Part shown: one piece after another, positions 165 to 36,753 of the stretch | Position numbering within the stretch: the first letter of the stretch is position 1 | Layout: each line of letters opens with the position of its first letter | DNA from: Citrobacter phage Shae_phiSM | DNA length: 36,753 nt | Sequence record: OR565851 | Direction: 5' to 3' (one strand) | The notes under the pieces: generated by a model | The model's database searches: none | The model's input: only the letters and a program-made list of their open reading frames with translations | Told to the model about the DNA's origin: nothing | Made by a program: the position numbers and the translations under genes

Positions 165-1058
165 CTATTTCCAGTTACAAGCAGCTTGAAGCGGTTTTAG
201 CGCGTTTGACAGGCCGTTTAAATTGAAAGTTGCACTTACGGGGCTCTCATTATAAGGCGTTATTTTTGTATACATTTTGCTTGAGTTGGCTAGTTTTCGG
301 ATGAAATCAATGTCATTACCTTTATAAAAAACAGCCTTTGTATCTGTAGATACTAGCCAGTTTCGCTCAACTGCTTTCTGTTTATCAAGGCGATAAAGCA
401 TGCTGGTTTGTTCAAGGCCTAAATATACATCCCAACTAAGAAATACTTCGGTTTTCTTTTCTCGGCAAGCTATAAAAAGAGTAGGAGTAACCGCTTCTCC
501 AAATGGAGTTCTGATATAATCATCACTTTCTAACGATAAAATTACATTTTTCGAATCATCAATTGGCGATGTAGTAATGGATGTGTGCCATTTTCCTACA
601 TCTGTGGCTTTCTCTAATTTTGATTCAGCTTGAACGATTTTATCCTGTGGGAATAGTTTATCGTAGCAGTTTAGTCTGGCTTCTTTATCATTTTCTGCAC
701 GACATTTAGATATCTCAGAAAGATTTGGTTGCTGAGCCTCTGTTGTTACTGGCTTTTCCGTTTTAGATTTTGAGTTTACAGATGGAGTAAATGTTGGAGA
801 AAAGAAACGATCATAACAAGATAAACGTCTATCATCATCTTTCTCATCAGGGCATTGATCTCTGCTTTCGAATTTTTCAGCAACTTTCGTTCGAGTCGGT
901 TGTATTGACTTATCGTAACAAGAAAGTCTGTCTTTATTATTTTCTATTGCTCGGCACTGGAGTACTGCATTGAAGTTCTTATGTTCAGTTGCTGCGTGAA
1001 CAGGCAGTACACTAATTGATATAAATGATGCACCTATAGAAAAAATTATATTTTTCAT
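165..1058 (-). CDS. secreted protein with three Cys-containing repeats and a ~150-aa C-terminal domain, function unknown
   Basis: 297-aa ORF; N-terminal signal peptide MKNIIFSIGASFISISVLPVHA; three repeats of C-x(9-10)-RL-x-CYD-[KR]; SD AAGGG upstream; about 35% GC, far below the phage backbone. Confidence 0.75.
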   Translation of the reverse strand: MKNIIFSIGASFISISVLPVHAATEHKNFNAVLQCRAIENNKDRLSCYDKSIQPTRTKVAEKFESRDQCPDEKDDDRRLSCYDRFFSPTFTPSVNSKSKTEKPVTTEAQQPNLSEISKCRAENDKEARLNCYDKLFPQDKIVQAESKLEKATDVGKWHTSITTSPIDDSKNVILSLESDDYIRTPFGEAVTPTLFIACREKKTEVFLSWDVYLGLEQTSMLYRLDKQKAVERNWLVSTDTKAVFYKGNDIDFIRKLANSSKMYTKITPYNESPVSATFNLNGLSNALKPLQAACNWK

Positions 1059-1062
1059 TTTA

Positions 1063-1395
1063 TTATCCCTTTGGTTTAGTAAGAAATACTAAAATTCCGA
1101 TAATGATATCGCCAATAACCCATAAGCTTCCAATGGTAATTAAACCTAAGCCCGTACCAATAACTGCACCGGCTTTTTCGGCATCGGATGTGGCATTATT
1201 TATTATTTCACTAGTGCCTCCTAGTCCAACTAAAAGCGTATAGATCATAAAAATATTAAATAATATAAAAACCCACTTAATGACCCGTCCAAAAAATGAA
1301 CGCTTAAGTTTTTGCAGTTGTTTACCACAAGCAGGGCAATACAATGCTGAATCGCTCACCTCTTTCTGGCATTCAGGACATTTGATTAATGCCAT
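1063..1395 (-). CDS. zinc-ribbon membrane protein (CPxC...CPxC followed by three predicted TM helices), function unknown
   Basis: ORF 1063..1440 trimmed to ATG at 1395, which has a strong SD AAGGAGG; N-terminus MALIKCPECQKEVSDSALYCPACG; hydrophobic C-terminal two thirds; stop is 4 nt before the start of the 297-aa ORF (operon). Confidence 0.7.
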   Translation of the reverse strand: MALIKCPECQKEVSDSALYCPACGKQLQKLKRSFFGRVIKWVFILFNIFMIYTLLVGLGGTSEIINNATSDAEKAGAVIGTGLGLITIGSLWVIGDIIIGILVFLTKPKG

Positions 1396-1659
1396 GTAAT
1401 CCGCCTCCTTTGGATTAATACGAGTTGATATTTGTGACAAAACATTTTGATTTTATCAGATTTATTTTTATTGATAAGTGTCAATTTATTAGCTGGTATA
1501 TAGAGTGAGGCATATAGAAGGGCTGGTCTGTATCAGTATGTGATGCAAAAATCCCACAGTTTCATGGAATTTTTGCATTTAGAGCTGTGAGATAGGGTGC
1601 CTTATCGACCTTACCCTAGCAACCGATTGACGGGGGATTACTCCCCCGTCGCGGTTTCC

Positions 1660-2293: not shown

Positions 2294-3403
2294 TCACTCT
2301 GTTTCCGCTATCCATTCCGGGATTTTTGCCTCAAGCTCAAGCTGCGTGGTAAAGCCGCTGTTATCAATGGTGTGCTCGGCTTTTGCAATAATCCAGTCCT
2401 GATTATCAATCTCGCTTTTAAATCCTGTTACCGTGCCATGCATTTCGGGGTAGAGTTCTGCGCGTCCACGTGCCAGTGTGATGGAGAATGATGCGGCTCC
2501 GCGTTGTAGCTGCTGCCACTTTGCCGCCGCTGCGCGTCTTGCTGCCTGCTCGTTCTGATAAGTCTTGCGTAACACAAACACATTGCCTTCTGCGCCTTCC
2601 ATATAATCACCTTCACGGCTGCTGCTTTTCTCTTTTTTGGGTTTTGGCGGTTTGCGGCGTTTCACGCTGACTTTTTTCTTTTTCCCGTAATTAAGATCAA
2701 GCCAGTAGGCGCGTACCCCCGTATACGCCTCGCGGTCAGCAATGCGGAACTGATGGCGATCGCTGCTGCTGCGTGTGATGGCGAACGATGGCAACGGCTG
2801 GCCCTGTGCGTTCACGCCACCGCCGGGCATGATGAATAACAGATTACCTCTTTTTACCGTGGTGATTGCACCCAACATTTCCGCCATGCGCGTAAGGAAG
2901 GACATGTCGCTTTCTTCGGTCTGGTCGGCGTGGTCGATTTCGATATCCATCAGCATTTCGCTGATTTGCGGTTTCAGACCATACCGATGAGCGATGGCGG
3001 ATACCACGCGCTCAACGGTCACATCATGCCAGGACACCTCACGTTTAACGTTAAATTCATCCCGAAAATCTGCGCTTCTGGCTGAAACCGTCAGCCTGTC
3101 CGGCGGTCCTTCGTGAGCGATTTCATCAACAATGTAAGTGCCTTTTTCTGTCAGCGGTTCTCCTTTCCAGCCAATGAGAACCGTCAGGCGCGCGCCCCGT
3201 GGCGGTAGCTGCAACTGACCATCTGCATCATCCATCGTGATGGTGAGCTGGTCCGCCTCAAATCCCCGGTTGTCGGTCAGTGACAGGCTCATCAGGCGCT
3301 CTGCCACGCCTGACAGCGTTTTACCCTCCGCGAGAATATCAAAATCCGGCATTTTCACGGGGTCTGTGCCCTGACTGAGCAATTGCATGGTGGTGTCGGT
3401 CAT
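2294..3403 (-). CDS. D: tail protein D (late control gene D family)
   Basis: ORF 2294..3535 trimmed to the ATG at 3403 (MTDTTMQLLSQ...) preceded by SD GGAGGG; gpD-like length and lysine-rich mid region; lies directly upstream of ogr as in P2. Confidence 0.8.
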   Translation of the reverse strand: MTDTTMQLLSQGTDPVKMPDFDILAEGKTLSGVAERLMSLSLTDNRGFEADQLTITMDDADGQLQLPPRGARLTVLIGWKGEPLTEKGTYIVDEIAHEGPPDRLTVSARSADFRDEFNVKREVSWHDVTVERVVSAIAHRYGLKPQISEMLMDIEIDHADQTEESDMSFLTRMAEMLGAITTVKRGNLLFIMPGGGVNAQGQPLPSFAITRSSSDRHQFRIADREAYTGVRAYWLDLNYGKKKKVSVKRRKPPKPKKEKSSSREGDYMEGAEGNVFVLRKTYQNEQAARRAAAAKWQQLQRGAASFSITLARGRAELYPEMHGTVTGFKSEIDNQDWIIAKAEHTIDNSGFTTQLELEAKIPEWIAETE

Positions 3404-3560
3404 CTGTTCCCTCCCTGTGCGGCATGGTCGCATGTGCGTGCGGAGGGGGTTACTGCTTTTTGTTGTCGCCGGGTCGGGAGAACGGCGCAGGGGTGAGATT
3501 ACGCGCGTGGTAGGTGATGATTGTTGCTGAATCATTTAACGGATACAAGGGGCTGAAGCT
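3404..3560. promoter_or_regulatory. divergent intergenic region between D and FI, presumed to hold late promoters
   Basis: 157-bp gap between divergently oriented D and FI starts; I could not identify an Ogr-type TGT-N12-ACA dyad by eye. Confidence 0.3.
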
Positions 3561-9154: not shown

Positions 9155-9190
9155 AAAAACCGCTAATGGTCAGATTAGCGGTTTTCATTT
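9155..9190. terminator. bidirectional rho-independent terminator between convergent U and invertase genes
   Basis: aaaaaccgctaat-ggtcag-attagcggtttt: 12-bp perfect stem flanked by an A-run and a T-run; the invertase stop codon lies in the stem. Confidence 0.7.
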
Positions 9191-9774
9191 TCCTGAGTCT
9201 GCCCGGTTGTTTCTTCAGTCTGTATATCGCCTACAGGGTGATAACGATAAATCGTCGATGTGCCAATGCCGTAAATTATTGCCAGTTGTTTTCTGTCGTG
9301 CCCGTTTTTGATTAGCCTTGCTATTTGCTCATGCTGTTCTTTTGTCAGCTTCGGTCGACGTCCGCCTGTGCGCCCCCTTGCGCGCGCTGCCGCCAGCCCG
9401 GCCAGTGTACGTTCAACAATTAATTCACGTTCCATTTCAGCCAGGGCACCCATCACGTGGAAGAAAAAACGCCCCATTGGAGAAGATGTGTCTATGCTGT
9501 CGGTCAGACTGCGAAAATTAATCCCTCGCTCCCGTAGTTCCCCGACGAGAGAAATCAGATGTTTCATGCTTCGCCCGAGGCGATCCAGTTTCCAGACAAC
9601 CAGCGTGTCACCTTTTTGAAGGCGCTTTAAAGCGCGTTTTAATCCCGGTCGGTCTGTCTTTGTCCCGCTTAATTTATCTTCAAATATTTGTTCACATCCT
9701 GCACAAACAAGAGCGTTTCGTTGCAGGTCTGTATTCTGGTCATTTGTTGATACCCTTACATAGCCAATCAGCAC
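9175..9774 (-). CDS. serine DNA invertase (Gin/Hin/Cin/Pin family)
   Basis: ORF 9175..9792 trimmed to GTG at 9774 (SD GGGAGA upstream); begins LIGYVRVSTNDQNTDLQRNAL... with the catalytic-Ser motif, a resolvase domain and a C-terminal HTH; adjacent to a gix/hix-like crossover site. Confidence 0.9.
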   Translation of the reverse strand: MLIGYVRVSTNDQNTDLQRNALVCAGCEQIFEDKLSGTKTDRPGLKRALKRLQKGDTLVVWKLDRLGRSMKHLISLVGELRERGINFRSLTDSIDTSSPMGRFFFHVMGALAEMERELIVERTLAGLAAARARGRTGGRRPKLTKEQHEQIARLIKNGHDRKQLAIIYGIGTSTIYRYHPVGDIQTEETTGQTQENENR

Positions 9775-9828
9775 ACTGAATCTCCCGTCCAAAAGCGCAA
9801 ATCATGCCATGCAGGCCAGAAACGGCCA

Positions 9829-10552: not shown

Positions 10553-11086
10553 ATGATGCACTTAAAAAATATTACTGCTGGCAACCCTAAAACAAAAGAG
10601 CAATACCAGCTAACAAAGCAATTTAACATCAAATGGCTTTATACAGAGGATGGGAAAAACTGGTATGAGGAACAAAAGAACTTTCAGCCTGATACGTTGA
10701 AAATGGTCTATGACCACAACGACGTTATTATTTGTATTGAAAAGGATGTTTCAGCAATTAATCCAGAAGGCGCAAGCGTCGTTGAGGTTCCTGATATTAC
10801 AGCAAATCGCCGGGCTGATATTTCGGGTAAATGGATGTTCAAAGATGGCGTAGTGATAAAGCGAACTTATACCGAGGAGGAACAGAGGCAGCAGGCAGAG
10901 AATGAAAAGCAAAGCCTATTGCAACTTGTCAGGGATAAAACCCAGCTATGGGACTCACAGCTACGGCTGGGTATCATTTCCAACGAGAATAAACAAAAAT
11001 TAACCGAGTGGATGCTCTATGCGCAGAAGGTCGAATCCACAGACACCTCCAGCCTGCCAGTAACGTTTCCAGAACAACCAGAATGA
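10553..11086 (+). CDS. tail fibre assembly protein, alternative (silent orientation)
   Basis: 177 aa, [22 protein letters not shown]..., paralogue of the 11115..11642 gene; directly follows the alternative C-terminal cassette. Confidence 0.85.
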   Translation: MMHLKNITAGNPKTKEQYQLTKQFNIKWLYTEDGKNWYEEQKNFQPDTLKMVYDHNDVIICIEKDVSAINPEGASVVEVPDITANRRADISGKWMFKDGVVIKRTYTEEEQRQQAENEKQSLLQLVRDKTQLWDSQLRLGIISNENKQKLTEWMLYAQKVESTDTSSLPVTFPEQPE

Positions 11087-11114: not shown

Positions 11115-11642
11115 TTACTCAGGCTTTTGTGGCCATTCGGGATTTGCTGTATCCACACGGCTGACCAGAACGCTGTAGCGTTCCCATGACTCCAGTCGTG
11201 TGCGTTCCTCATCCGTCGCCATATTCAGCCTGACAGCGCGTTCCAGTGGCTGAATAACGCTTTCAGCTTCAGAAAGCAACGCGACCTTTTGTGATTCGGC
11301 CTGTTGTTGCTGTTCGTCTGCTGTATAAATCCGCTTAAACACAGTTCCGTCCTTAAACATCCACTTCCCTGAATCATCGGCACGACGATTGGCTGTTATA
11401 TCAGGAACTTCAACGACGCTATAGCCTTCAGGGTTAAGCGTGGAGGCATCTTTGGTGATGGCGACAATAATATTATTCTCGTCATAAAGAATTTTTATTG
11501 TGTCTTCCTGAAAGTTCTTTAATTCCTCGTACCAGTTTTTCCCGTCTTCGGACCATAACCAGATAACATCAAAATTCTTTGTTAGCTGATATTGTTCTTT
11601 TGTTTTTGGATTTCCGGACTTAATATTTTTTAAATGCTGCAT
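11115..11642 (-). CDS. G: tail fibre assembly protein (currently expressed orientation)
   Basis: 175 aa, [22 protein letters not shown]...; directly downstream of H. Confidence 0.85.
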
Positions 11643-25776: not shown

Positions 25777-25791
25777 ATGGGTGAAGGAAAG

Positions 25792-26295
25792 ATGACTCTG
25801 GATTCAACAGCGATACAAATCATTAGTAACGTGATAGTCCTGTTTGGCGTCATAGTTGCTATCTGCACGATTATCTATAACATTCGTACAGCCAAAAAAA
25901 CACAGACTGCTAATTTTTTATTTGAAAGTCGCCAGGACAAAGAATACCTGGAATCGCTACATCTTCTCAGACGCATTCATCGTTCAGGAAAATCGTTTCG
26001 TGCTTATGTCTTTCCCTGTGAAGGCGGGGTGATTACGGAAGAAGAGATGACTGAACGTCGCAAATTCCAGTACATTCTTAACTTTTATGAGAGAGTGGCC
26101 GTAAGTATCCGTGAAGGGATTTACGATGAAAGGATGATTAAGCGAACATCCTTTACAACGGTCGTTACGACTTATGATATTGCGGAACCCCTGATTAAAG
26201 CCATCAGAGAGGATACCCAATCAAAAACGGCTTACCAGGAATTTGAGTGGTTGGTGAAGAGATGGAAAGCCAGGCCACTTGAGAAAGATGTGTAG
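25792..26295 (+). CDS. membrane-anchored protein of unknown function (one N-terminal TM helix plus ~130-aa cytoplasmic domain); candidate defence/exclusion cargo
   Basis: ORF 25777..26295 trimmed to the ATG at 25792 (SD AAGGA); TM helix IQIISNVIVLFGVIVAICTIIYNI; about 40% GC; sits where P2 carries old/tin between gene A and the packaging genes. Confidence 0.7.
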   Translation: MTLDSTAIQIISNVIVLFGVIVAICTIIYNIRTAKKTQTANFLFESRQDKEYLESLHLLRRIHRSGKSFRAYVFPCEGGVITEEEMTERRKFQYILNFYERVAVSIREGIYDERMIKRTSFTTVVTTYDIAEPLIKAIREDTQSKTAYQEFEWLVKRWKARPLEKDV

Positions 26296-26385: not shown

Positions 26386-26697
26386 TTATTCGGGAAATAA
26401 CGCCCGGATATTTCCGGCCATCTGACAGGTTATCTGTGCGGTTGGTGCTGGTTGTGATACGGGGCGTTCTGTCCTGGTTTGCGTCAGGGATAACGCTTCA
26501 TCGTCAGCCCATGCAGCCAGTCGGTAAGCCTCTGCCGGATTCATTTTCAGAAGTGCCAGCCCTGCCAGAAAAGCCACGCGTTGGCCACTTTTGCGGGCTT
26601 CTGGTGTAAGGCTGTCCAGCCAGGCGCATGCTTCGCCTTCGTTCTTGACGGCGGCGGGCTTCAGATAGAAACTTATCCGTCTGGTTGGTGTCGTCAT
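26386..26697 (-). CDS. parR: ParR-like centromere-binding adaptor (ribbon-helix-helix)
   Basis: ORF trimmed to ATG 26697 (SD AAGGAG); RRISFYLKPAAVKNEGEACAWLDSLTPEARKSGQRVAFLAGLALL resembles the plasmid R1 ParR N-terminus as I recall it; directly downstream of the parM-like gene. Confidence 0.65.
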   Translation of the reverse strand: MTTPTRRISFYLKPAAVKNEGEACAWLDSLTPEARKSGQRVAFLAGLALLKMNPAEAYRLAAWADDEALSLTQTRTERPVSQPAPTAQITCQMAGNIRALFPE

Positions 26698-26701
26698 TGG
26701 T

Positions 26702-27661
26702 TTACTCCTTGTCCATTGCGTACAGCCCATTAACCAGAGCAAACTGTGGCACCCCGTCCGCGATGAAAGTCGCATTAACTCCGCAGGCTTCGCGGATAGC
26801 GGGTGCCACAATCTCCGCCCCGCCACCGACAACCATCACCCGCCCGTAACCCGAAAAACCCGCCAGCGCGCGGATCACGCGTTGTTTCAGTGTTTCTTCC
26901 TTTTCACGAATAACCGCCATCAGGCTGGCGTAATGCGCGTCATTGTGGATGTGCTGGCGCAACCAGGCTTCATCATGGCGATGTTCGATAATGGTATTGG
27001 CGATGTGGTGACTGGTACGCATACCGTTAGTGGCCATCACCGACAGTACGGCATCGGCCATCAGGGAAACGCCTACGTGTGGATCGCAAAACACCTGGCT
27101 GATACCTGCCAGTTGTCCCTGAACCTTTGCCACATCCAGCGTGGTTCCGCCCAAATCCACAATCAGCAGGGATTCAAACGGACTCATGTCAGCCAGTGCT
27201 TTAAAGCCAGCCGGAATGGATTCAGGCATAACCCGTACATTACGGATAGTGAATGCCTCACCGTTCTGGTACTCCACCGGGCGCATAACGTTCGCTTTTT
27301 TGCGGTTGATGTTGGTCATATCCGGCTGGGCGTTTGTGTCGAAATACTCGCTCAGTGGCAGGGTGACAACAACATCCACCTCCTGTGGCGTGATGCCTGA
27401 TTTGACCAGCGCGTGATGAATGGCAATGACATTCACATCGCTGTACTGGTATTGCGTGTCGGTCGTCTGGACAAAGCGATCGCTGACCGGATCAAAACCA
27501 TAGCGCACGCCATCAAGCATATAGTTCGCGGGCTGCGTGCCACCGAACGGCGCAGACCATTCCGACTTGAAGCTGTTCGGGCTGATGGCGTTGCGGCGTT
27601 CGCCGTTCTCAGTCCATGCCAGCTTGATGTTGGTGGAGCCGTCGTCGATACAAATTTTCAT
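26702..27661 (-). CDS. parM: ParM/StbA-like actin-type segregation ATPase
   Basis: 319 aa; MKICIDDGSTNIKLAW...YSDVNVIAIHHAL...LIVDLGGTTLDV...VMVVGGGAEI matches the ParM actin-fold motifs (R1 ParM begins MLVFIDDGSTNIKLQW from memory); SD AAGGA. Confidence 0.85.
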   Translation of the reverse strand: MKICIDDGSTNIKLAWTENGERRNAISPNSFKSEWSAPFGGTQPANYMLDGVRYGFDPVSDRFVQTTDTQYQYSDVNVIAIHHALVKSGITPQEVDVVVTLPLSEYFDTNAQPDMTNINRKKANVMRPVEYQNGEAFTIRNVRVMPESIPAGFKALADMSPFESLLIVDLGGTTLDVAKVQGQLAGISQVFCDPHVGVSLMADAVLSVMATNGMRTSHHIANTIIEHRHDEAWLRQHIHNDAHYASLMAVIREKEETLKQRVIRALAGFSGYGRVMVVGGGAEIVAPAIREACGVNATFIADGVPQFALVNGLYAMDKE

Positions 27662-35459: not shown

Positions 35460-35555
35460 GGCCAGAAAACTGGTTAGACCTGCTCTTTGTCTGGTCTGAT
35501 TATTGCTGGAAAGAGGCTGGAGAAATTGTAGGGCGGTTCATTGGAGGGCTTCGCA

Positions 35556-36560
35556 ATGTCAATTAAGAAGCTCGAAGATGGTCGTTATTTGCTGGACATC
35601 AGGCCGAACGGACGCAAGGGAAAGCGCGTGCGTAAGGTATTTGACAAAAAATCGGTAGCGGTGGCCACTGAACGCTACATCATGGCGAACGCTGAAAAGC
35701 GGGAATATATACAGGGCTACCGTGATCGCCGAACGCTAAATGATTTGCTTGAGTTGTGGTGGATGTATCACGGTCAACACAGGCGTAAGGCGGAAGAAGA
35801 CCGAAAACAACTGTGCAACATAATCAATGAGCTTGGCGCTGATATGCAGGCTGTGGATCTTGATAAGCTGAAAATTATCGCGTGGCGTTCTCAAAAGATA
35901 GCTGCTGGATTGAAACCGTCATCTGCTAACAGGTACATGAACCGACTATCCGGCATGTTTACTGTTCTGAAAAGAATAGGCCTTTGGGATGCAGAACATC
36001 CGGTAAGGGGAATTTCTATTCTTTATGTATCCCCGCGAGAAATGGCTTTCCTGTCCCAGAAGGAAGTAGCGCTATTGCTCGATACACTGGAGGGCGACTA
36101 CTGGCGTGTTGCGCTTTTGTGTTTAAGCACAGGGGCGCGCTGGAGTGAAGCTTGTAAGCTTCGTGGTGAACAGATAGTTCATAACCGTGTAACGTTTCTT
36201 GAAACCAAAAATGGCCGGAAGAGAACGGTGCCAATTTCACAGGCGGTTTGTGAGGCGATCAGAACCAGAGAAACAGGCAACTTGTTTGAGGTGAAGTACC
36301 GGGAATTCTGCCTAGCGCTGAAAAGGGTTAAGCCCGATTTGCCAAAAGGCCAGGCTGCGCATGTGCTGCGGCATACGTTCGCCAGCCATTTTGTGATGAA
36401 CGGAGGAAACATTATTGCGCTTCAGAAGATTCTTGGCCACGCAACCATTCAGCAAACAATGGCATATGCACATTTTGCACCGGATTACCTGCAGGATGCG
36501 GTGGCCCTTAATCCGCTGAAAGGTGGCGTGAGTGTCCACGCAGTGTCCACGGGGGATTAA
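35556..36560 (+). CDS. int: tyrosine integrase (P2 Int family)
   Basis: ORF 35541..36560 trimmed to ATG 35556 (SD GGAGGG); MSIKKLEDGRYLLDIRPNGRKGKR... N-terminus and C-terminal HxxR...Y catalytic-region pattern (...HVLRHTFASHF...GHATIQQTMAYAHF). Confidence 0.9.
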   Translation: MSIKKLEDGRYLLDIRPNGRKGKRVRKVFDKKSVAVATERYIMANAEKREYIQGYRDRRTLNDLLELWWMYHGQHRRKAEEDRKQLCNIINELGADMQAVDLDKLKIIAWRSQKIAAGLKPSSANRYMNRLSGMFTVLKRIGLWDAEHPVRGISILYVSPREMAFLSQKEVALLLDTLEGDYWRVALLCLSTGARWSEACKLRGEQIVHNRVTFLETKNGRKRTVPISQAVCEAIRTRETGNLFEVKYREFCLALKRVKPDLPKGQAAHVLRHTFASHFVMNGGNIIALQKILGHATIQQTMAYAHFAPDYLQDAVALNPLKGGVSVHAVSTGD

Positions 36561-36660: not shown

Positions 36661-36753
36661 TTTTTTCAGATTAAACAGCAGTTTGCAAATGGGCGTTTGT
36701 TAATAAAGGAGCCTTAGATTGTCAGAGACTGAAAAAGGGTTAAAAATCCTTGT

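Follow-up and report, generated by a model that had tools for sequence, protein, structure and literature searches.

Citrobacter phage Shae_phiSM (sequence record OR565851) carries two adjoining minus-strand genes close to one end of a 36,753-nucleotide stretch of DNA, which we analysed whole and refer to as the window. The pair is horizontally acquired phage cargo, located in the slot between ogr/hok and the attachment site (att). The upstream gene (1063–1395) encodes a predicted zinc-ribbon inner-membrane protein of 110 residues, and the downstream gene (165–1058) encodes a predicted exported protein of 297 residues that is, by its profile match, a member of the Pfam VasI/DUF3121 family. We propose that the two genes would form a lysogenic-conversion (moron) cassette in the att-proximal slot of a P2-like phage and would encode an envelope module. 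As the function of such a lysogen-expressed module we prefer superinfection exclusion, a reading that we hold tentatively and with less than even confidence.

A previous description made from the letters alone, referred to here as the sequence-only reading, had reported two tightly linked minus-strand genes of about 35% GC beyond ogr and suggested that they are horizontally acquired cargo. The coordinates and linkage are borne out: the genes are translationally coupled, 4 nt apart, and lie between ogr (1991–2251) and att. The GC content is 36.5% for the pair, 36.3% for positions 1–1600 and 52.9% for 1601–36753. The cargo assignment stands as well, with the pair located inside att, present in 236 of 5426 complete Escherichia coli genomes (4.3%), and the content of the slot differing between close relatives. 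On the sequence, the true start of the zinc-ribbon gene is ATG 1395 and not TTG 1440 of the program-made list of open reading frames (ORFs), because a Shine-Dalgarno sequence, AAGGAGG (1404–1410, minus strand), lies 8 nt ahead of this ATG and 26 of 26 aligned homologues begin with M-A/S/T-L/I.

The gene pair lies inside an exact prophage

The window is exactly one P2-like prophage from attL to attR, inserted in the first codons of pdxB. Copies of the att core, ATCCTTGT, occupy positions 1–8 (attL) and 36746–36753 (attR), and the same 8 bases open and close the window. The common att core reaches AAAATCCTTGTTGA in host and phage forms. In the virion-form (packaged-genome) record of Xuanwuvirus P88_4B11, the window end is joined to the window start (...GGGTTAAAAATCCTTGTTGAGG...), and the spacer from int to the VasI-like gene reads ...GACTGAAAAAGGGTTAAAAATCCTTGTTGAGG..., that is, the right end of the window followed by its left end. 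The left junction in the lysogen, GTGAAAATCCTTGTTGATGAA, adjoins flk and reads GTG AAA ATC CTT GTT GAT GAA; the encoded MKILVDE is the start of pdxB. At the other junction, pdxB is annotated directly past the integrase. The gene pair lies 157 bp inward of the att core. A complete P2-like prophage fills the rest of the window, with the integrase gene at 35541–36560. Since the window is an exact attL-to-attR prophage and the virion-form record joins its ends, the pair is phage DNA and not host flank.

The slot varies among relatives. In P88, nothing past the hok region matches the window, while the slot of P88_4B11 holds the pair together with three extra ORFs. Other E. coli prophages carry a different VasI-like gene and a zinc-ribbon/TM2 protein there. 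The slot resembles the known P2-like hotspots (old/tin between gpA and gpQ; Z/fun; tail-protein-to-CI) in being variable, AT-rich and interchangeable between conserved flanks. In the text consulted of the P2-hotspot papers, among them a 2026 survey, neither the ogr-to-att interval nor this cargo is given separate mention; the survey lists minor hotspots near int and att.

Further cargo of the same slot was also noticed. In phage Chuche (locus L005, 3126–4068), a Com-like regulator of translation together with a DNA methyltransferase takes the place of the pair. The zinc-ribbon/TM2 protein, of 98 residues, is a frequent occupant (L025, 7561–9009; L009, 6830–7126; L138–L164), usually without a VasI-like gene. 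In Izhakiella (L025), it stands beside a stop-interrupted zinc-ribbon gene and an intact VasI-like gene. We considered this protein, in E. coli (L009) and Izhakiella, as a dedicated alternative partner of the VasI-like protein and rejected the idea as unproven, given that in 17 of 72 viral loci it sits in the ogr slot with no VasI-like gene at all.

The downstream gene encodes a predicted exported VasI-like protein

The sequence-only reading recognised neither protein as belonging to a known phage or defence family, a statement that is not supported as it stands. The zinc-ribbon protein falls in PHROG 6586, and the downstream protein falls in PHROG 1848 and matches VasI (PF11319) with 88.6 bits (gathering cut-off 26.5), residues 118–296 spanning positions 1–184 of the 184-position model. 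Two extra N-terminal repeats give additional partial matches to the same model. In public annotation (PGAP), the gene is named 'type VI secretion system-associated protein TagO'.

A Sec signal peptide is predicted for residues 1–22, which read MKNIIFSIGASFISISVLPVHA|AT with the cleavage site VHA|A, and agrees with the earlier description of this protein. The three Cys repeats described there are also present, at residues 35, 69 and 119; their spacing had been given as C-x(9-10)-RL-x-CYD and is in fact C-x8-RL-x-CYD. The Cys pairs (35/47, 69/81 and 119/131) are thus separated by 12 residues each. Among 200,000 shuffles of the protein, none gave even one match to the motif. The C-terminal domain of about 150 residues, likewise anticipated, extends over residues ~150–297 in the AlphaFold2 model as an IalB-fold β-sandwich with Cys 198/294 and a predicted local distance difference test score (pLDDT) above 90. 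The Cys repeats are modeled as helical hairpins with disordered linkers between them.

Across 30 homologues, C119, R128, L129, C131, D133 and C198 are invariant and C294 is nearly so. Homologues have one, two or three Cys hairpins, with lengths of about 210, 250 and 298 residues. Fold matches of the model include no enzyme fold, and a sequence search of the PDB returned only a chance match to a tubby-related protein (E 0.1). All fold matches in BFVD are uncharacterised phage proteins; those with the IalB/VasI fold include proteins annotated to Escherichia phage RB16, Klebsiella phage KP15, Aeromonas phage 65.2 and Vibrio phage VH7D. RB16, KP15 and 65.2 are T4-like lytic phages, and the IalB/VasI fold is therefore not confined to temperate phages.

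The likeness to IalB is one of fold. The hidden Markov model (HMM) of IalB (PF06776) scores 20.4 bits, below its gathering cut-off of 22.1, so the protein is not assigned to that family. Sequence identity to IalB of Bartonella (PDB 3dtd) is only 14–18%, and IalB, unlike the phage protein, has no Cys-hairpin repeats. To our knowledge, the molecular function of IalB has not been established.

The upstream gene encodes a predicted zinc-ribbon membrane hairpin

The CPxC...CPxC zinc ribbon noted in the sequence-only reading is confirmed by a match to Pfam PF13240 (Zn_Ribbon_1) with 31.8 bits, the cut-off being 25. The ribbon reads C6-P-x-C9 ... C20-P-x-C23 (CPxC-x10-CPxC), and 25 of 26 homologues match the same model; in the alignment of these 26, the ribbon cysteines C6, C20 and C23 show no variation, and C9 is almost invariant. 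Three transmembrane (TM) helices had been claimed. We find instead two long helices in the AlphaFold2 model, at residues 34–66 and 71–105, and two hydrophobic blocks by hydropathy, and positive charges lie at both cytoplasmic ends of the membrane hairpin. Based on these three features, the protein most likely has two TM helices in an N-in/C-in topology, in which the ribbon would be cytoplasmic and a short loop periplasmic.

The zinc-ribbon family is tightly conserved: its aligned members are 42–89% identical to the window protein. Invariant positions are N47, W92, G95 and T106-x-P108-K109, and D96 is nearly invariant; the periplasmic loop SDAE+AGA and the C-terminal TRPK are conserved. An exhaustive profile search collected 332 representative clusters at E<=1e-10, including hairpins without a ribbon and a few fusions to other domains. 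When fusions of the hairpin family were inspected for hints of function, the only ones found were to a tRNA_anti-like OB-fold, in two distant relatives.

DrpB (YedR), a small E. coli protein that has two TM helices and is associated with the divisome, was considered as well. The hairpin shares its size and topology and the R-S-x-x-G-K and T-R-P-K/R ends (NCBIfam E 5e-4), and DrpB, unlike the window protein, has no zinc ribbon. Identity with DrpB (NF038392) was rejected: the score is 20.2 bits with a cut-off of 50, and hhalign gave a probability of 17.9% with E 0.0013. Among 10 ribbon-less relatives compared with the DrpB model, none reached the cut-off and two gave weak matches of at most 24 bits.

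At L122 (1361–2360), the gene for a distant homologue of the zinc-ribbon hairpin protein (P0146, 43% identity) has another gene upstream, to which it is translationally coupled. The product of that gene has 223 residues, a signal-peptide-like N-terminus and a weak Rv1352 match, and the gene is preceded by one for a protein with a weak SLT-transglycosylase match.

The VasI-like protein is a TagO paralogue away from type VI secretion loci

The public name of the gene points to the system for type VI secretion (T6SS), and we compared the phage protein with true TagO. An E. coli TagO encoded between tssH and tssA shares 26% identity with the phage protein over residues 113–296, the whole domain. 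Both have a signal peptide, the C-x8-RL-x-CYD helical motif, the β-sandwich and a C-terminal C-x-W. In contrast to TagO, the phage protein has the Cys motif in triplicate and is encoded next to att. Against the TagO equivalog model (TIGR03360), whose cut-off is 124.2 bits, the tssH-tagO-tssA product scores 259.5 bits, the window protein 75.4 bits, and five other phage or orphan members 34–78 bits. By homology, then, the phage VasI-like protein is a TagO paralogue, and by the equivalog definition it is not TagO.

The genomic context differs as well. The T6SS clusters examined have no zinc-ribbon membrane protein, unlike the phage pair. No T6SS genes were found near the phage copies, where the window neighbours are ogr, hok, gpD and att, nor in the Klebsiella and Enterobacter prophages. 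Likewise, reading of the ORF translations within 3.5 kb of 14 orphan non-enteric copies, including those of Vibrio, Photobacterium, Caulobacter and Sulfurovum, revealed no recognisable T6SS genes. A large paralogous VasI branch thus lacks T6SS linkage and is yet named 'T6SS-associated TagO' in public annotation, which likely misleads T6SS surveys.

As for function, VCA0118 of Vibrio cholerae is needed for full T6SS killing and not for Hcp secretion (PMC3166118). A 2026 review of T6SS accessory factors gives the function of TagO as unknown (PMC13584744).

The two genes mostly travel together

Starting from the VasI-like protein, 64 of 78 loci in IMG/VR have the zinc-ribbon gene directly upstream, and 63 of these also have ogr and gpD. 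Starting from the zinc-ribbon profile, a VasI-like gene is present in 65 of 80 viral loci. The adjacency and the few-base gap are kept in prophages of Escherichia, Klebsiella, Raoultella, Enterobacter, Salmonella and Brenneria, which are integrated at pdxB, yccJ, fieF or copA, and adjacency holds across genera at identities of 47–64% (VasI-like) and 66–75% (zinc ribbon). Phage records with the pair include PhiR44_2, 500465-2, P88_4B11 and Klebsiella 3LV2017-type phages. Both genes are under purifying selection when compared with the Klebsiella and Enterobacter orthologues, with nonsynonymous divergence (pN) of 0.14–0.24 and synonymous divergence (pS) saturated at 0.69–0.84. A natural in-frame fusion, zinc ribbon-single TM-VasI (P0052), is seen in one contig from one sequencing run (L018, 7001–7732), where a P2-like prophage beside copA has it in its ogr-att slot. 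On these sequence comparisons, the two genes belong together mostly and not obligatorily.

Remnants of prophages at P2 att sites (cpxP-fieF and cueR-copA) still carry the genes, as does a plasmid of enterotoxigenic E. coli (ETEC). A Phytobacter remnant at a P2 att site keeps the VasI-like gene only, and the Izhakiella remnant keeps it intact beside the interrupted zinc-ribbon gene described above. The ETEC plasmid has an intact zinc-ribbon gene and a VasI-like gene that is broken into two pieces.

Several of these loci show further features. On ETEC IncF plasmids (pCss165Kan, NC_022333.1; L133, 3448–5911), the order is gpD fragment-ogr-hok-zinc ribbon-VasI, flanked by an integrase gene and insertion sequence (IS) elements. 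In Enterobacter mori (L020, 4983–6755, minus strand), the pair occurs without a phage between cueR and copA, adjoining a gene for a 590-residue GmrSD_N and Schlafen/AlbA_2 protein, likely a defence gene in a prophage remnant. Integrase-like fragments of 29–31 residues lie just downstream of VasI-like genes in Photobacterium (L016, 8653–8745) and Brenneria (L026, 8997–9083). The fragments are about 61% identical to residues 276–332 of the window integrase and are convergent, as in the circular phage form, which suggests that orphan VasI-like copies descend from integrated elements.

The VasI-like gene follows repressor genes in other phages

Five other contexts in temperate phages have the VasI-like gene directly behind the repressor gene. 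Two of them (L118 and L119) have a CI/S24-type repressor followed by the VasI-like gene, which overlaps the repressor stop in L118, and a third (L114) has the order helix-turn-helix repressor, VasI-like gene, int. In Brucella phage BiPBO1, the gp68 repressor is followed by gp67, and the gene also follows the repressor gene in Klebsiella phage ST11-VIM1phi8.1. The position after the repressor is a classic place of lysogen-expressed genes, such as lambda rexAB.

In the window, no Ogr-type late-promoter dyad (TGT-N12-ACA) occurs near the pair, and the window-wide count of such dyads is at chance. A sigma-70-like promoter candidate with an extended -10, TTATCA-16-TGaTAAAAT, lies upstream of the pair (1450–1477, minus strand). 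Expression of the pair in lysogeny, the weakest link of our reading, is suggested mainly by the place of the VasI-like gene behind repressors elsewhere; the window itself adds the absence of the dyad and this candidate, itself a chance-level match. The occurrence of the VasI-like gene alone after repressor genes suggests that the periplasmic protein would be the main actor and the membrane protein an accessory able to stand alone. The sequence-only reading had raised the possibility of a membrane sensor paired with a periplasmic effector; as a defence idea, this has no PADLOC match.

A possible envelope module for superinfection exclusion

The signal peptide, the four conserved Cys pairs and the two-helix hairpin together predict an envelope location for both products. 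We propose that the membrane protein would keep its zinc ribbon in the cytoplasm and expose its short conserved loop to the periplasm. The VasI/DUF3121 protein would be Sec-exported and disulfide-stapled, and its IalB-like β-sandwich would serve as a binding module in the periplasm. The hairpin protein probably holds the VasI-like protein near the inner membrane. The module would be made in the lysogen and stop entry at the envelope, where the likeliest target may be a superinfecting phage after adsorption; the target could extend to other contractile injectors. Contact between the two proteins is inferred, and so is exclusion as their function.

Resident-phage proteins in the same compartments are known. 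Glo of the P2-related phage K139 is periplasmic and is described as an immunity gene of the K139 family (PMC4870250), and in T4 the periplasmic protein Spackle inhibits gp5, the tail lysozyme (PMC7677548). The pair resembles T4 Imm (inner membrane) and Sp (periplasm), P1 Sim and K139 Glo in being encoded by a resident phage and placed in the inner membrane or periplasm, and differs from them in having no sequence or fold relationship to any; no protein of these types is among the fold matches.

A number of observations weigh against exclusion. PADLOC-DB 2.0 contains no family matching either protein at E<=1, and we found no report on TagO, VasI or DUF3121 in the literature on phages or P2. We tried K139 Glo as a VasI relative and rejected it, with K139 absent from the tblastn matches. 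The sole tested member of the family, VCA0118, promotes T6SS killing and blocks nothing (PMC3166118). Promoter-type matches around 1450–1477 are at the chance level, with 4 found and 5.2 expected from shuffles, and the pair may be transcribed in the lytic cycle by read-through from the same-strand gpD-ogr-hok genes. Each gene also occurs alone: the zinc-ribbon gene in Pantoea (cueR-copA), in Haemophilus paracuniculus (with uvrB on one side and a gene for a dehydrogenase on the other) and in at least 9 viral loci where a partner would have had room, and the VasI-like gene in many phages and bacteria. Both could therefore be independent morons.

This last possibility, that two unrelated morons share one slot and that their adjacency reflects common descent of one cassette and not joint function, seems improbable to us. 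The separate occurrences just listed speak for it, as do the 17 of 72 viral loci in which the zinc-ribbon/TM2 protein fills the same slot with no VasI-like gene. However, the adjacency outlasts the divergence of both proteins across genera and several att sites, the few-base gap is kept, and one natural in-frame fusion exists. We assign a similarly low probability to a helper of the lytic cycle, read through from gpD-ogr-hok and acting in lysis timing, egress or envelope preparation. All these genes lie on one strand with no T-rich terminator between them on that strand, and a membrane protein with a periplasmic one superficially recalls holin or spanin pairs. The spanin architecture, an outer-membrane lipoprotein with a lipobox and a type II inner-membrane protein whose C-terminus is periplasmic, is nevertheless unmatched, since the VasI-like protein lacks a lipobox and an N-in/C-in topology with only a short periplasmic loop is predicted for the membrane protein. 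The lack of an Ogr-type dyad near the pair, the existence of close relatives without these genes, which makes them dispensable, and the place of the VasI-like gene in the repressor operon of other phages also argue against this role. Flanking host chromosomal DNA outside the prophage, an alternative left by the sequence-only reading, retains a vanishingly small probability: it has only the window-edge position and the deviant GC content in its favour, and it is refuted by the att cores at both window ends, the virion junction in P88_4B11 and the host junction at the pdxB start. Nor are the genes core genes of the host, as the low share of complete E. coli genomes with the pair indicates.

Two further explanations accept an envelope function. 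In one, the pair is a host-fitness or virulence conversion factor, whose envelope change (stress tolerance, adhesion or host interaction) helps the lysogen with no anti-phage role. We consider it unlikely: the VasI-like gene is broken on the ETEC plasmid, the IalB HMM score falls under its gathering cut-off, and the position after a repressor is classic for exclusion genes, though other conversion genes sit there too. In the other, which we regard as quite unlikely, the pair is an interface to contractile weapons, protecting the periplasm of the lysogen against attack by a T6SS or tailocin or tuning the T6SS of the host itself. P2 tails, like the T6SS, are contractile machines for injection; the full-length homology to E. 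coli TagO, with the same Cys motif and C-x-W, and the part of VCA0118 in full T6SS killing fit this idea. It is opposed by the scores of the phage clade on TIGR03360, far below that of true TagO and below the cut-off, by the absence of T6SS genes near any phage or orphan copy inspected, and by the lack of a mechanistic base in a protein, TagO, whose function is listed as unknown.

Returning to superinfection exclusion, a wider form of this reading is that the pair belongs to an unrecognised envelope-level exclusion system, which several temperate-phage lineages would carry next to att or behind the repressor gene. Such a system would catch incoming injectors of the contractile or tube-forming kind, namely phage tails and possibly tailocins or T6SS, in the periplasm. 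We regard this wider form as doubtful; if it is correct, the question of what TagO/VasI, the T6SS accessory protein, binds would for the first time become approachable at the molecular level. Exclusion of phages or injectors by the pair would mean a further envelope-acting module among the defences of P2-like phages and an extension of the P2 hotspots to the ogr-att interval, and the two genes would make a simple system in which to learn the binding partners of the VasI fold. A pair without such activity would be an ordinary moron.

The domain family, the zinc ribbon, the P2 cargo hotspots and the TagO label in annotation are already known. As far as our searches go, it is undescribed that a large VasI/DUF3121 branch is phage cargo unrelated to T6SS loci, that the P2-like VasI-like gene travels with a conserved zinc-ribbon hairpin protein in the ogr-att slot, and that the VasI-like gene occurs in the repressor operon of other phages.

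Other features of the cassette and the window

A perfect hairpin (93–136), with 20-bp arms that are 100% complementary and a 4-nt loop, separates the att core from the stop of the VasI-like gene. It lacks a T-run, and a compensated form is kept in P88_4B11; on the sequence, it is likely a candidate terminator or insulator of the cassette. An inverted repeat with 14-nt arms (1543–1578), found by a repeat search between hok and the promoter candidate, may be an operator or terminator.

Upstream of the pair on the same strand are the Hok/Gef toxin ORF (1660–1800), ogr (1991–2251; Pfam Ogr_Delta) and gpD (2294–3535). The Hok/Gef type I toxin ORF, located between ogr and the pair, matches Pfam HOK_GEF with 30 bits, and the region 1595–1967 shares 83% identity with hok loci in Stx-converting phages.

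A repeat, GTGTCCACGCAGTGaCCAC, is present on the plus strand at 62–82 and again at 36531–36551 within the 3' end of int, and it occurs on both attP arms in P88_4B11. It is probably an arm-type binding site of the integrase. We had tried GTGTCCACGCAGTG at these two positions as the att core and ruled it out from the virion and lysogen junctions, which place the core at ATCCTTGT. On the right side, the phage arm just upstream of attR supplies AAGGAG and a TTG start that re-head pdxB as MSETEKGL-KILVDE... (window 36690–36753 and 1–30; L001, 7985–8010; L135, 305–1462). PGAP annotates a 385-residue PdxB in the lysogen, and a short truncated reading frame remains at the left junction.

Elsewhere in the window, the classical gpA-gpQ hotspot (26386–27661, minus strand, and 25777–26295, plus strand) holds a plasmid-type partition module of a ParM/StbA actin-like ATPase and a Plasmid_stab_B protein, together with a DUF4760 protein; none of these matches PADLOC. 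PADLOC gave no match for eight other window ORFs, mostly gpA-gpQ cargo. A Cin/Hin-type invertase gene (9175–9792, minus strand) is accompanied by two opposed tail-fibre assembly genes (10553–11086, plus strand; 11115–11642, minus strand), and this arrangement looks like an invertible host-range segment.

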